From Escherichia phage T7, in sequence record MG833025.1: 38,553 bases of DNA. One strand, given 5' to 3'. The notes under the pieces were generated by a model. That model did not search any database. It saw nothing but the letters and a program-made list of their open reading frames with translations, and had not been told where the DNA came from. Positions 1,279-6,170 of this stretch are shown here, piece by piece. A program made the position numbers and the translations under genes. Position 1 is the stretch's first letter, and the number at the start of each line of letters is the position of its first letter.

Positions 1279-1433
1279 TGTCTACTACCAACGTGCAATA
1301 CGGTCTGACCGCTCAAACTGTACTTTTCTATAGCGACATGGTGCGCTGTGGCTTTAACTGGTCACTCGCAATGGCACAGCTCAAAGAACTGTACGAAAAC
1401 AACAAGGCAATAGCTTTAGAATCTGCTGAGTGA
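1278..1433 (+). CDS. 0.4: Gene 0.4 small protein (51 aa)
   Basis: The ATG overlaps the 0.3 stop (taATG); [51 protein letters not shown]. It is below the ORF-track size cutoff. Confidence 0.8.
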   Translation: MSTTNVQYGLTAQTVLFYSDMVRCGFNWSLAMAQLKELYENNKAIALESAE

Positions 1434-1490
1434 TAGACTCAAGGTCGCTCCTAGCGAGTGGCCTTTTTGATTATCACTTTACTTATGAGG
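1434..1490 (+). promoter_or_regulatory. Probable RNase III processing site (R0.5-like) with the native gene 0.5 RBS
   Basis: actcaaggtcgctcctagcgagtggcc can form a hairpin like T7 RNase III sites; gaggga lies just before the ATG at 1496. Confidence 0.55.
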
Positions 1491-1495
1491 GAGTA

Positions 1496-2491
1496 ATGAG
1501 CATCGCGGCGACCCTGGAGAACGATCTGGCGCGTCTGGAAAACGAAAACGCTCGTCTCGAAAAAGACATCGCGAACCTGGAACGTGACCTGGCGAAACTG
1601 GAGCGTGAAGAAGCGTACTTCGGAGGTTCAGGTGGTAAGAACACTGGTGAAATCTCTGAGAAAGTCAAGCTGGGCACTAAGGCACTGGCTGGTCAATGGC
1701 TGGCTTACGGTGTTACTCGCAGTGTGACTAAGAGTTCAGTCATGACGCTGGCTTACGGGTCCAAAGAGTTCGGCTTCCGTCAACAAGTGCTGGAAGATAC
1801 CATTCAGCCAGCTATTGATTCCGGCAAGGGTCTGATGTTCACTCAGCCGAATCAGGCTGCTGGATACATGGCTAAGCTGATTTGGGAATCTGTGAGCGTG
1901 ACGGTGGTAGCTGCGGTTGAAGCAATGAACTGGCTTAAGTCTGCTGCTAAGCTGCTGGCTGCTGAGGTCAAAGATAAGAAGACTGGAGAGATTCTTCGCA
2001 AGCGTTGCGCTGTGCATTGGGTAACTCCTGATGGTTTCCCTGTGTGGCAGGAATACAAGAAGCCTATTCAGACGCGCTTGAACCTGATGTTCCTCGGTCA
2101 GTTCCGCTTACAGCCTACCATTAACACCAACAAAGATAGCGAGATTGATGCACACAAACAGGAGTCTGGTATCGCTCCTAACTTTGTACACAGCCAAGAC
2201 GGTAGCCACCTTCGTAAGACTGTAGTGTGGGCACACGAGAAGTACGGAATCGAATCTTTTGCACTGATTCACGACTCCTTCGGTACGATTCCGGCTGACG
2301 CTGCGAACCTGTTCAAAGCAGTGCGCGAAACTATGGTTGACACATATGAGTCTTGTGATGTACTGGCTGATTTCTACGACCAGTTCGCTGACCAGTTGCA
2401 CGAGTCTCAATTGGACAAAATGCCAGCACTTCCGGCTAAAGGTAACTTGAACCTCCGTGACATCTTAGAGTCGGACTTCGCGTTCGCGTAA
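1496..2491 (+). CDS. 1: Split T7 RNA polymerase, C-terminal fragment: Met, SYNZIP18-like coiled coil, GGSGG, Lys, polymerase residues 601-883 with apparent R632S
   Basis: Translation SIAATLENDLARLENENARLEKDIANLERDLAKLEREEAYF-GGSGG-KNTGEISEKV... runs to the polymerase C-terminus ...LRDILESDFAFA. It contains motif C (IHDSF, H811/D812) and the specificity-loop region. Confidence 0.93.
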   Translation: MSIAATLENDLARLENENARLEKDIANLERDLAKLEREEAYFGGSGGKNTGEISEKVKLGTKALAGQWLAYGVTRSVTKSSVMTLAYGSKEFGFRQQVLEDTIQPAIDSGKGLMFTQPNQAAGYMAKLIWESVSVTVVAAVEAMNWLKSAAKLLAAEVKDKKTGEILRKRCAVHWVTPDGFPVWQEYKKPIQTRLNLMFLGQFRLQPTINTNKDSEIDAHKQESGIAPNFVHSQDGSHLRKTVVWAHEKYGIESFALIHDSFGTIPADAANLFKAVRETMVDTYESCDVLADFYDQFADQLHESQLDKMPALPAKGNLNLRDILESDFAFA

Positions 2492-2510
2492 TAAAGAGGA
2501 GAAATACTAG
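2491..2510 (+). promoter_or_regulatory. Synthetic intercistronic RBS (aaagaggagaaa plus tactag spacer) after a double stop
   Basis: taataaagaggagaaatactagATG matches a standard synthetic-biology RBS part with an assembly scar; this is not native T7 sequence. Confidence 0.8.
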
Positions 2511-4463
2511 ATGAACACGATTAACATCGCTAAGAACGACTTCTCTGACATCGAACTGGCTGCTATCCCGTTCAACACTCTGGCTGACCATTACGGTGAG
2601 CGTTTAGCTCGCGAACAGTTGGCCCTTGAGCATGAGTCTTACGAGATGGGTGAAGCACGCTTCCGCAAGATGTTTGAGCGTCAACTTAAAGCTGGTGAGG
2701 TTGCGGATAACGCTGCCGCCAAGCCTCTCATCACTACCCTACTCCCTAAGATGATTGCACGCATCAACGACTGGTTTGAGGAAGTGAAAGCTAAGCGCGG
2801 CAAGCGCCCGACAGCCTTCCAGTTCCTGCAAGAAATCAAGCCGGAAGCCGTAGCGTACATCACCATTAAGACCACTCTGGCTTGCCTAACCAGTGCTGAC
2901 AATACAACCGTTCAGGCTGTAGCAAGCGCAATCGGTCGGGCCATTGAGGACGAGGCTCGCTTCGGTCGTATCCGTGACCTTGAAGCTAAGCACTTCAAGA
3001 AAAACGTTGAGGAACAACTCAACAAGCGCGTAGGGCACGTCTACAAGAAAGCATTTATGCAAGTTGTCGAGGCTGACATGCTCTCTAAGGGTCTACTCGG
3101 TGGCGAGGCGTGGTCTTCGTGGCATAAGGAAGACTCTATTCATGTAGGAGTACGCTGCATCGAGATGCTCATTGAGTCAACCGGAATGGTTAGCTTACAC
3201 CGCCAAAATGCTGGCGTAGTAGGTCAAGACTCTGAGACTATCGAACTCGCACCTGAATACGCTGAGGCTATCGCAACCCGTGCAGGTGCGCTGGCTGGCA
3301 TCTCTCCGATGTTCCAACCTTGCGTAGTTCCTCCTAAGCCGTGGACTGGCATTACTGGTGGTGGCTATTGGGCTAACGGTCGTCGTCCTCTGGCGCTGGT
3401 GCGTACTCACAGTAAGAAAGCACTGATGCGCTACGAAGACGTTTACATGCCTGAGGTGTACAAAGCGATTAACATTGCGCAAAACACCGCATGGAAAATC
3501 AACAAGAAAGTCCTAGCGGTCGCCAACGTAATCACCAAGTGGAAGCATTGTCCGGTCGAGGACATCCCTGCGATTGAGCGTGAAGAACTCCCGATGAAAC
3601 CGGAAGACATCGACATGAATCCTGAGGCTCTCACCGCGTGGAAACGTGCTGCCGCTGCTGTGTACCGCAAGGACAAGGCTCGCAAGTCTCGCCGTATCAG
3701 CCTTGAGTTCATGCTTGAGCAAGCCAATAAGTTTGCTAACCATAAGGCCATCTGGTTCCCTTACAACATGGACTGGCGCGGTCGTGTTTACGCTGTGTCA
3801 ATGTTCAACCCGCAAGGTAACGATATGACCAAAGGACTGCTTACGCTGGCGAAAGGTAAACCAATCGGTAAGGAAGGTTACTACTGGCTGAAAATCCACG
3901 GTGCAAACTGTGCGGGTGTCGACAAGGTTCCGTTCCCTGAGCGCATCAAGTTCATTGAGGAAAACCACGAGAACATCATGGCTTGCGCTAAGTCTCCACT
4001 GGAGAACACTTGGTGGGCTGAGCAAGATTCTCCGTTCTGCTTCCTTGCGTTCTGCTTTGAGTACGCTGGGGTACAGCACCACGGCCTGAGCTATAACTGC
4101 TCCCTTCCGCTGGCGTTTGACGGGTCTTGCTCTGGCATCCAGCACTTCTCCGCGATGCTCCGAGATGAGGTAGGTGGTCGCGCGGTTAACTTGCTTCCTA
4201 GTGAAACCGTTCAGGACATCTACGGGATTGTTGCTAAGAAAGTCAACGAGATTCTACAAGCAGACGCAATCAATGGGACCGATAACGAAGTAGTTACCGT
4301 GACCGATGAGAACGGAGGTTCAGGTGGTGGATCCAACGAAAAAGAAGAACTGAAATCCAAAAAAGCGGAACTGCGCAACCGTATCGAACAGCTGAAACAG
4401 AAACGTGAACAACTGAAGCAGAAAATCGCGAACCTGCGTAAAGAAATCGAAGCTTACAAATAA
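2511..4463 (+). CDS. 1: Split T7 RNA polymerase, N-terminal fragment: residues 1-601, GGSGGGS, SYNZIP17-like coiled coil
   Basis: MNTINIAKNDFSDIELAAIPFNTLADHYGERLAREQ... runs to ...NEVVTVTDEN, then GGSGGGS and NEKEELKSKKAELRNRIEQLKQKREQLKQKIANLRKEIEAYK. It contains motif A (D537). Confidence 0.93.
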   Translation: MNTINIAKNDFSDIELAAIPFNTLADHYGERLAREQLALEHESYEMGEARFRKMFERQLKAGEVADNAAAKPLITTLLPKMIARINDWFEEVKAKRGKRPTAFQFLQEIKPEAVAYITIKTTLACLTSADNTTVQAVASAIGRAIEDEARFGRIRDLEAKHFKKNVEEQLNKRVGHVYKKAFMQVVEADMLSKGLLGGEAWSSWHKEDSIHVGVRCIEMLIESTGMVSLHRQNAGVVGQDSETIELAPEYAEAIATRAGALAGISPMFQPCVVPPKPWTGITGGGYWANGRRPLALVRTHSKKALMRYEDVYMPEVYKAINIAQNTAWKINKKVLAVANVITKWKHCPVEDIPAIEREELPMKPEDIDMNPEALTAWKRAAAAVYRKDKARKSRRISLEFMLEQANKFANHKAIWFPYNMDWRGRVYAVSMFNPQGNDMTKGLLTLAKGKPIGKEGYYWLKIHGANCAGVDKVPFPERIKFIEENHENIMACAKSPLENTWWAEQDSPFCFLAFCFEYAGVQHHGLSYNCSLPLAFDGSCSGIQHFSAMLRDEVGGRAVNLLPSETVQDIYGIVAKKVNEILQADAINGTDNEVVTVTDENGGSGGGSNEKEELKSKKAELRNRIEQLKQKREQLKQKIANLRKEIEAYK

Positions 4464-4520
4464 GAGGGACAAACTCAAGGTCATTCGCAAGAGTGGCCTT
4501 TATGATTGACCTTCTTCCGG
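4464..4520 (+). promoter_or_regulatory. RNase III processing site R1.1 region
   Basis: gagggacaaactcaaggtcattcgcaagagtggcctttatgattgacc has a hairpin-capable actcaagg...gagtggcc motif like other T7 RNase III sites. Confidence 0.55.
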
Positions 4521-4521
4521 T

Positions 4522-4544
4522 TAATACGACTCACTATAGGAGAA
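4522..4544 (+). promoter_or_regulatory. T7 promoter phi1.1B
   Basis: taatacgactcactataggagaa, +1 near 4539. Confidence 0.9.
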
Positions 4545-4622
4545 CCTTAAGGTTTAACTTTAAGACCCTTAAGTGTTAATTAGAGATTTAAATTAAAGAA
4601 TTACTAAGAGAGGACTTTAAGT
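4545..4622. other. AT-rich region of the primary origin of replication
   Basis: AT-rich tract ttaaggtttaactttaag...agatttaaattaaagaattac just downstream of phi1.1B, where the T7 primary origin lies. Confidence 0.6.
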
Positions 4623-4751
4623 ATGCGTAACTTCGAAAAGATGACCAAACGTTCTAACCGTAATGCTCGTGACTTCGAGGCAACCAAAGGTCGCAAGTTG
4701 AATAAGACTAAGCGTGACCGCTCTCACAAGCGTAGCTGGGAGGGTCAGTAA
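4623..4751 (+). CDS. 1.1: Gene 1.1 small basic protein (42 aa)
   Basis: MRNFEKMTKRSNRNARDFEATKGRKLNKTKRDRSHKRSWEGQ with RBS gagagga upstream. Confidence 0.8.
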   Translation: MRNFEKMTKRSNRNARDFEATKGRKLNKTKRDRSHKRSWEGQ

Positions 4752-4752
4752 G

Positions 4753-5010
4753 ATGGGACGTTTATATAGTGGTAATCTGGCAGCATTCAAGGCAGCAACA
4801 AACAAGCTGTTCCAGTTAGACTTAGCGGTCATTTATGATGACTGGTATGATGCCTATACAAGAAAAGATTGCATACGGTTACGTATTGAGGACAGGAGTG
4901 GAAACCTGATTGATACTAGCACCTTCTACCACCACGACGAGGACGTTCTGTTCAATATGTGTACTGATTGGTTGAACCATATGTATGACCAGTTGAAGGA
5001 CTGGAAGTAA
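4753..5010 (+). CDS. 1.2: Gene 1.2, inhibitor of host dGTPase
   Basis: MGRLYSGNLAAFKAATNKLFQLDLAVIYDDWYDAY... 85 aa. Confidence 0.85.
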   Translation: MGRLYSGNLAAFKAATNKLFQLDLAVIYDDWYDAYTRKDCIRLRIEDRSGNLIDTSTFYHHDEDVLFNMCTDWLNHMYDQLKDWK

Positions 5011-5030
5011 TACGACTCAGTATAGGGACA
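5008..5030 (+). promoter_or_regulatory. T7 promoter phi1.3
   Basis: taatacgactcagtatagggaca, +1 near 5025. Confidence 0.9.
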
Positions 5031-5090
5031 ATGCTTAAGGTCGCTCTCTAGGAGTGGCCTTAGTCATTTAACCAATAGGAGATAAACATT

Positions 5091-6170
5091 ATGATGAACA
5101 TTAAGACTAACCCGTTTAAAGCCGTGTCTTTCGTAGAGTCTGCCATTAAGAAGGCTCTGGATAACGCTGGGTATCTTATCGCTGAAATCAAGTACGATGG
5201 TGTACGCGGGAACATCTGCGTAGACAATACTGCTAACAGTTACTGGCTCTCTCGTGTATCTAAAACGATTCCGGCACTGGAGCACTTAAACGGGTTTGAT
5301 GTTCGCTGGAAGCGTCTACTGAACGATGACCGTTGCTTCTACAAAGATGGCTTTATGCTTGATGGGGAACTCATGGTCAAGGGCGTAGACTTTAACACAG
5401 GGTCCGGCCTACTGCGTACCAAATGGACTGACACGAAGAACCAAGAGTTCCATGAAGAGTTATTCGTTGAACCAATCCGTAAGAAAGATAAAGTTCCCTT
5501 TAAGCTGCACACTGGACACCTTCACATAAAACTGTACGCTATCCTCCCGCTGCACATCGTGGAGTCTGGAGAAGACTGTGATGTCATGACGTTGCTCATG
5601 CAGGAACACGTTAAGAACATGCTGCCTCTGCTACAGGAATACTTCCCTGAAATCGAATGGCAAGCGGCTGAATCTTACGAGGTCTACGATATGGTAGAAC
5701 TACAGCAACTGTACGAGCAGAAGCGAGCAGAAGGCCATGAGGGTCTCATTGTGAAAGACCCGATGTGTATCTATAAGCGCGGTAAGAAATCTGGCTGGTG
5801 GAAAATGAAACCTGAGAACGAAGCTGACGGTATCATTCAGGGTCTGGTATGGGGTACAAAAGGTCTGGCTAATGAAGGTAAAGTGATTGGTTTTGAGGTG
5901 CTTCTTGAGAGTGGTCGTTTAGTTAACGCCACGAATATCTCTCGCGCCTTAATGGATGAGTTCACTGAGACAGTAAAAGAGGCCACCCTAAGTCAATGGG
6001 GATTCTTTAGCCCATACGGTATTGGCGACAACGATGCTTGTACTATTAACCCTTACGATGGCTGGGCGTGTCAAATTAGCTACATGGAGGAAACACCTGA
6101 TGGCTCTTTGCGGCACCCATCGTTCGTAATGTTCCGTGGCACCGAGGACAACCCTCAAGAGAAAATGTAA
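5091..6170 (+). CDS. 1.3: ATP-dependent DNA ligase
   Basis: 359 aa with the KYDGVRG adenylation motif (lysine nucleotidyltransferase motif I). Confidence 0.95.
   Translation: MMNIKTNPFKAVSFVESAIKKALDNAGYLIAEIKYDGVRGNICVDNTANSYWLSRVSKTIPALEHLNGFDVRWKRLLNDDRCFYKDGFMLDGELMVKGVDFNTGSGLLRTKWTDTKNQEFHEELFVEPIRKKDKVPFKLHTGHLHIKLYAILPLHIVESGEDCDVMTLLMQEHVKNMLPLLQEYFPEIEWQAAESYEVYDMVELQQLYEQKRAEGHEGLIVKDPMCIYKRGKKSGWWKMKPENEADGIIQGLVWGTKGLANEGKVIGFEVLLESGRLVNATNISRALMDEFTETVKEATLSQWGFFSPYGIGDNDACTINPYDGWACQISYMEETPDGSLRHPSFVMFRGTEDNPQEKM

Follow-up and report, generated by a model that had tools for sequence, protein, structure and literature searches.

The 38,553-nt stretch of DNA analyzed here, hereafter the window, is almost certainly the genome of JB 13-78 (MG833025), an engineered coliphage T7 carrying a split RNA polymerase (RNAP) that was built to test attenuation by fragmentation. 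This identification derives from sequence comparison, namely the exact matches of both polymerase polypeptides to deposited proteins and the match of the window to a published design. Our analysis confirms that catalytic and promoter-recognition elements are divided between two polypeptides, as the original prediction had read from the DNA. Because this split belongs to a published and deliberate design, we judge it to be already known; the split polymerase in the window has been published, and its biology is not new.

Alignment to NC_001604 shows that the window (1-38553) is a complete T7 genome with one rearranged region, and that both 160-bp terminal repeats are present. The aligned segments are as follows.

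1-1498: T7 1-1498, with one mismatch, at 1467
1638-2491: T7 4969-5822, the 3' third of gene 1
2506-4313: T7 3166-4973, the 5' two thirds of gene 1
4463-38553: T7 5847-39937, 100% identical

Sequence foreign to T7 totals only 302 nt (1499-1637, 2492-2505, and 4314-4462). Missing from the window are T7 1499-3165, with genes 0.5, 0.6A/B, and 0.7 as well as the minor E. coli promoters B and C, and likewise T7 5823-5846. The ORFs were taken from a six-frame list and from direct reading of 1250-2600 and 4200-5120, and in these the gene 1 product is encoded not as a single polypeptide but by two neighboring plus-strand ORFs whose order is permuted (1496-2491 and 2511-4463). The C-terminal piece is encoded upstream of the N-terminal piece, the reverse of the arrangement in T7, and the two ORFs lie 19 nt apart with two stop codons between them. 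A search of a phage collection returned no record spanning the whole window, with the best matches covering 95% of it in four pieces. A full-text search for the zipper peptides likewise turned up no paper in which they are printed, and two candidate sources of the construct, PHEIGES and the Raman-lab T7 infectivity-switch preprint, proved unrelated.

The upstream ORF encodes the C-terminal, or sigma, fragment, for which the following features were identified.

1434-1495, plus strand: native region 5' of gene 0.5, with the R0.5 RNase III hairpin and the Shine-Dalgarno sequence GAGGGAG (1487-1493), reused for the sigma fragment
1496-2491, plus strand: sigma fragment ORF, 331 aa, composed of M, SynZIP18, GGSGGK, and T7 RNAP 601-883 with R632S
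1499-1621, plus strand: SynZIP18 coiled coil, 41 aa, SIAATLEN...EEAYF
1622-1639, plus strand: GGSGGK linker
1640-2488, plus strand: T7 RNAP residues 601-883
1730-1732, 1733-1735, and 1754-1756, plus strand: K631, S632 (R632S), and Y639, in the sigma fragment
2054-2149, plus strand: specificity loop, residues 739-770, in the sigma fragment
2261-2281, plus strand: ALIHDSF, with H811/D812 at 2270-2275, in the sigma fragment

The product of this ORF is identical to GenBank AVH85520.1 (331 aa, 'RNA polymerase [Escherichia phage T7]'). Its ATG, at 1496, is the old gene 0.5 start codon, and translation would therefore use the gene 0.5 ribosome-binding site. A longer GTG-started ORF (1430-2491, 353 aa) was considered for the start of the sigma fragment and rejected, the deposited protein being the 331 aa that begin at the ATG. 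Residues 49-331 correspond to T7 RNAP 601-883 with R632S as the sole exception, a change that results from C>A at window 1733 (CGT>AGT) and directly adjoins the catalytic K631. Consistent with this, T7 RNAP chains of solved structure, 1cez and 1qln among them, are matched by residues 48-331 (E = 2e-189) and differ only at R632; the RNA_pol family (PF00940) matches the fragment with 188.7 bits over profile positions 147-376. A silent C>G at 2287 destroys a GGTACC (KpnI) site. The zipper is related to SYNZIP6 (PDB 3he4, E = 5e-8), and the K of the GGSGGK linker is probably a residue left over from the splitposon method. The whole fragment is identical at 326 of 331 positions to APA32051.1, 'SZ18-T3_sigma_factor [Synthetic plasmid pTac-T3]'; the first 78 residues, zipper and linker head included, are the same in both, and the differences consist of R632S plus four residues of the specificity loop.

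The N-terminal piece, referred to as the alpha-beta or core fragment, follows after a short spacer.

2492-2510, plus strand: 19-nt spacer TAAAGAGGAGAAATACTAG, an extra TAA stop followed by a synthetic RBS
2511-4463, plus strand: core fragment ORF, 650 aa, composed of T7 RNAP 1-601, GGSGGGS, and SynZIP17
2511-4313, plus strand: T7 RNAP residues 1-601, corresponding to NC_001604 3171-4973, gene 1 codons 1-601
2787-2813 and 3198-3245, plus strand: AT-rich recognition loop and intercalating hairpin, in the core fragment
4104-4142, plus strand: motif A PLAFDGSCSGIQH, with D537 at 4119-4121, in the core fragment
4314-4334, plus strand: GGSGGGS linker
4335-4460, plus strand: SynZIP17, 42 aa, NEKEELKSKK...EIEAYK

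The spacer resembles BioBrick B0034 plus an assembly scar. Residues 1-601 of the core fragment are the same as in the wild type, the sole change at the DNA level being a silent T>C at 3923, and the reading frame runs past 4313 through the linker and the 42-aa coiled coil to a stop codon at 4461-4463. N601 is present on both pieces, as the polymerase part of the core fragment ends with it (4311-4313) and that of the sigma fragment begins with it (1640-1642). The complete product is identical both to AVH85521.1 (650 aa, 'RNA polymerase [Escherichia phage T7]') and to APA32048.1, 'Core polymerase-SZ17 [Synthetic plasmid pCore]'. In Pfam, it matches RPOL_N (PF14700) with 118.5 bits over residues 36-322 and RNA_pol with 174.4 bits over profile positions 1-145, the first third of the profile; taking both fragments together, the RPOL_N and RNA_pol matches exceed the Pfam cut-offs.

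With these features placed, the functional elements of the enzyme can be assigned to one chain or the other. Mapping of wild-type RNAP residues, together with the Pfam matches, bears out the original prediction that the core fragment holds the N-terminal domain and D537 of motif A. The K631, Y639, H811/D812, ALIHDSF, and specificity loop that it assigned to the other polypeptide are indeed on the sigma fragment, which lies upstream, outside the interval (2511-4313) for which the prediction was made. Mapping the catalytic residues on the alignment, the check that had been proposed, thus places motif A on the core fragment and motifs B (K631 and Y639) and C (H811/D812) on the sigma fragment. Promoter recognition is divided as well, with the AT-rich loop and intercalating hairpin on the core fragment and the specificity loop on the sigma fragment. 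The engineering of the locus, that is, the zippers, linkers, synthetic RBS, and reversed order, as well as its prior publication, went unmentioned in the original prediction.

A naturally evolved two-subunit T7-like polymerase, comparable to the gp15/gp16 heterodimer that forms RNAPII of phage N4, might also present as two intact ORFs, each with a plausible ribosome-binding site, and heterodimeric RNAPs of the single-subunit family do exist in nature (PMC4496689). However, the junctions in the window are designed coiled coils that are named SZ17 and SZ18 in synthetic-plasmid records, and they are accompanied by Gly-Ser linkers, a synthetic RBS spacer, and a reversed fragment order. The duplication of N601 is what a transposon splitting method would give, the remaining 34 kb show 100% identity with the reference sequence of 1983, and N4 RNAPII has motifs A, B, and C in one subunit, whereas here motif A is apart from B and C. 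We consider the probability of a natural origin to be vanishingly small, and the matches to engineered sequences, along with the published construction, rule it out.

The phage was described by Garry, Ellington, Molineux and Bull (2018, Virus Evolution 4:vey017; PMC6009699), who recombined a two-fragment RNAP into T7 delta-1, a parent from which genes 0.5-0.7, gene 1, and part of phi1.1A had been removed, yielding isolate JB 13-78 (GenBank MG833025). The fragments used were the core and sigma fragments of Segall-Shapiro et al. (2014), and the design placed sigma 5' of alpha-beta with a 19-base spacer containing an extra stop (PMC6009699). The window shows this published layout, with sigma first, the 19-nt spacer and extra stop, and the same deletions. 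The enzyme of Segall-Shapiro et al. is a split T7* RNAP with R632S, broken at 601, with SynZIP17 on the core fragment and SynZIP18 on the sigma fragment, and its activity is approximately one quarter that of the full-length enzyme (PMC4299498). The original prediction that neither fragment could be active alone is supported by published work on the same pair (PMC4299498, PMC6009699). The fragments 'have to be co-expressed to function', with no activity when any one is absent, and the negatives behind this statement are controls without the core or without the sigma fragment (PMC4299498). In the phage work, both fragments are described as carrying elements essential for transcription and as being 'on the same transcript', and placing any part outside the early region would leave the phage with no T7 RNAP (PMC6009699).

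That the record is an assembly or annotation artefact, in which T7 reads became chimeric with reads from a split-RNAP expression plasmid, appears very improbable. The parts of the split enzyme are also found on plasmids such as pCore and pTac-T3, and a backbone equal to the reference is what a reference-guided or in-silico map would give. Yet the junctions are exact and functional, with the cassette starting on the gene 0.5 ATG and ending one base before the +1 of phi1.1A; plasmid backbone is absent and both terminal repeats are present; and, according to the paper, the construct was recombined into T7 delta-1, plaques were isolated, and the genome was resequenced and evolved for 38 h (PMC6009699).

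The split phage forms plaques, with an initial fitness of ~15 doublings/h compared to ~35 for the wild type, and passage for ~38 h raised this to ~37 doublings/h with three substitutions in the RNAP pieces (V685A, N697S, and T596I) and the split retained, while gene 3.5 was unchanged during adaptation (PMC6009699). At sites 1486, 1893 (the V685 codon), 1929 (N697), and 4297 (T596) of Table 1, the window carries the ancestral bases, so that four of the eight sites fit directly; the remaining four, all 3' of gene 1, line up with the window only when their coordinates are raised by 38. Given this offset, the template used for mapping in the paper may differ slightly from the deposited record. One of the adaptive changes, T1486G, would convert ATGAGG to AGGAGG five bases 5' of the sigma ATG, which, in our own interpretation, suggests selection for more translation of the sigma fragment.

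The elements that govern expression of, and transcription by, the split polymerase are as follows.

498, 626, and 750 (498-750), plus strand: E. coli RNAP early promoters A1, A2, and A3, from the NC_001604 annotation and identical here
4463-4469, plus strand: remnant of phi1.1A, -1 to +6, with -17 to -2 deleted
4522-4544, plus strand: phi1.1B, the first T7 RNAP promoter 3' of the split gene, kept
9322-9777, plus strand: gene 3.5, T7 lysozyme (an RNAP inhibitor), intact, with 100% DNA identity to T7 10706-11161 and an identical translation
22779-22826, plus strand: Tphi terminator, intact

Both polymerase cistrons are situated in the early region, 3' of the intact A1-A3 promoters and flanked by the RNase III hairpin regions R0.5 and R1.1, and A1-A3 are the only available source of transcript for them. 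Sixteen of the 17 annotated T7 promoters are kept, with identical sequence from -17 to +6; the exception is phi1.1A, which is lost due to deletion of positions -17 to -2. The original prediction that all of the regulatory parts are retained therefore holds for Tphi, gene 3.5, and these 16 promoters but not for phi1.1A. Similarly, the notion that the native regulatory circuit acts on a two-piece enzyme corresponds precisely to the system that Garry et al. constructed and assayed, although the circuit is not fully native, as phi1.1A and genes 0.5-0.7, including the gene 0.7 kinase, are missing and R632S is present.

The single mismatch in the left segment is a T at window 1467 (A1467T) that is private to this genome, being a mismatch in 76 of 76 matching phage records (best match 98.5% over 65 nt). 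It falls in unpaired sequence immediately 3' of the R0.5 stem. With either base, the predicted minimum free energy comes to -17.4 kcal/mol, so folding by itself supports no conclusion on the effect of this substitution.

The presence of R632S may bear on how the fitness of JB 13-78 is to be read. This active-site change arose spontaneously and makes the enzyme less toxic, and mutations in this region can reduce processivity (Temme et al. 2012, PMC3458549). Neither a mention of R632S nor a comparison with a phage carrying an unsplit R632S polymerase was found in the text of Garry et al. (PMC6009699). R632S, along with the missing phi1.1A and genes 0.5-0.7, is not controlled for when the phage is compared with wild-type T7. 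The attenuation may not stem from fragmentation alone, given that R632S sits beside the active site and that phi1.1A and genes 0.5-0.7 are gone. It is conceivable, though we would tend to doubt it, that R632S accounts for a measurable share of the attenuation and that V685A, N697S, and T596I partly compensate for it.

Based on the sequence and the published work, the assembly and operation of this system can be outlined. A two-cistron cassette was recombined into the gap of T7 delta-1, from which genes 0.5 to 1 and most of phi1.1A had already been deleted. The first cistron, sigma, takes over the RBS and start codon of gene 0.5 for its translation, and the second, core, is preceded by the synthetic RBS. 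The order of the two genes was deliberately reversed, and consequently a simple deletion would be unable to restore the wild-type reading frame. From the retained T7 layout and the constraint to the early region stated in the paper, we infer that host RNAP reads both cistrons from A1-A3 as one early transcript. The two chains then pair via the antiparallel SynZIP17/18 zipper and the native interface, rebuilding one active site from motif A of the core fragment and motifs B and C of the sigma fragment, and a single surface for promoter binding from the N-terminal domain elements of the former and the specificity loop of the latter. The assembled enzyme drives the 16 remaining T7 promoters and stops at Tphi, and presumably it remains under the control of lysozyme.

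Compared with JB 13-78 as published (Garry et al. 2018), the window shows no differences in design; both proteins match exactly, and it likewise lacks genes 0.5-0.7 and part of phi1.1A. Being that published construct, the window represents neither a new member nor a new variant of a known system. The split site, zippers, linkers, and R632S are also the same as in the 'resource allocator' of Segall-Shapiro et al. 2014 (1:601-SZ17 plus SZ18-601:883), in which the fragments were carried on plasmids under Ptac or constitutive promoters and drove reporters. In the window, by contrast, the fragments are in the T7 genome, in reversed order and under phage early promoters, and must support a whole infection cycle.

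Other two-piece forms of T7 RNAP have been divided at a different site. The nicked polymerase, cut near residue 179, is the 20K+80K enzyme. Shis and Bennett in 2013 reportedly produced T7 RNAP in two pieces with the cut near residue 179, and a proximity-dependent split T7 RNAP, again cut near residue 179, is said to have been developed by Pu et al. in 2017. These 179-split polymerases likewise consist of two co-expressed chains, but all of their catalytic motifs are on one piece, unlike those of the 601 split. The split-intein T7 RNAP, also made from two co-expressed polypeptides, differs in another respect, as it is religated to one chain (PMC4231753), whereas the 601-split chains here stay separate. 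The nearest natural analogue of the split polymerase is N4 RNAPII, in which gp15 and gp16 correspond to non-overlapping parts of T7 RNAP and both are required (PMC4496689), as in the window. The break in N4 RNAPII falls between the thumb/DX2GR region and the palm, leaving motifs A, B, and C all in gp16 (PMC4496689). The N4 genes are also collinear, and their products meet at a natural interface without zippers, while in the window the order is reversed, the zippers are synthetic, and the break at 601 falls between motifs A and B.

The split enzyme was published in 2014; the 2018 paper reported the phage construct together with its rationale (attenuation that a simple deletion cannot revert), the cost in fitness, and the later evolutionary recovery. 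The window is a synthetic laboratory genome and should be flagged as such in genome scans. For those who reuse MG833025, it is also important that R632S, the losses of phi1.1A and genes 0.5-0.7, and A1467T are none of them part of the fragmentation itself.

The sigma fragment of the split polymerase (SynZIP18 fused to T7 RNAP residues 601-883) is taken back in the ORF listing to a GTG at 1430, an extension (window 1430-1495) that overlaps the gene 0.4 stop. This start was rejected: the deposited protein begins at the ATG at 1496, so the longer reading frame merely reflects the mechanical way in which ORFs are called. Within the same interval, T1486G was reported by Garry et al. 2018 (PMC6009699) as an adaptive intergenic mutation. 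This change would make AGGAGG (window 1485-1490), 5 bases upstream of the sigma-fragment ATG, and it is probably an up-translation mutation, a reading that is ours and is not stated by Garry et al. A separate private difference, A>T at 1467, lies in the unpaired bases that directly follow the stem of the R0.5 RNase III hairpin on its 3' side, and abolishes an upstream ATG (wild type 1467-1469); it was found in none of 76 matching phage records, and the predicted folding energy of R0.5 does not change with it.

At the other end of the split gene, the T7 promoter phi1.1A is absent at window 4447-4469 (T7 5831-5853), where the end of the SynZIP17 ORF, encoding the core fragment, stands in place of promoter positions -17 to -2. 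This leaves 16 of the 17 T7 promoters and agrees with the T7 delta-1 parent as described by Garry et al. 2018 (PMC6009699).

The evolved sites in Table 1 of Garry et al. match the window directly within 1486-4297. For the four sites at 17498, 22666, 33991, and 36465, base and codon are as expected only with an offset of +38 (window 17536, 22704, 34029, and 36503, respectively), which suggests a 38-bp difference, located somewhere past 4297, between the mapping template used for the table and the deposited record.

Compared with reference gene 1, the split gene also has two silent changes, which presumably came with the T7* RNAP gene carried on the plasmid:

Window 2287: C>G, silent, with loss of a GGTACC KpnI site
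Window 3923: T>C, silent

The sigma fragment additionally carries CGT>AGT at window 1733-1735, producing R632S, which adjoins the catalytic K631 and derives from the T7* RNAP of the Voigt lab. There is no mention of R632S in the text of Garry et al. 2018 (PMC6009699), and it is therefore a possible confound for the attenuation that was ascribed to fragmentation.
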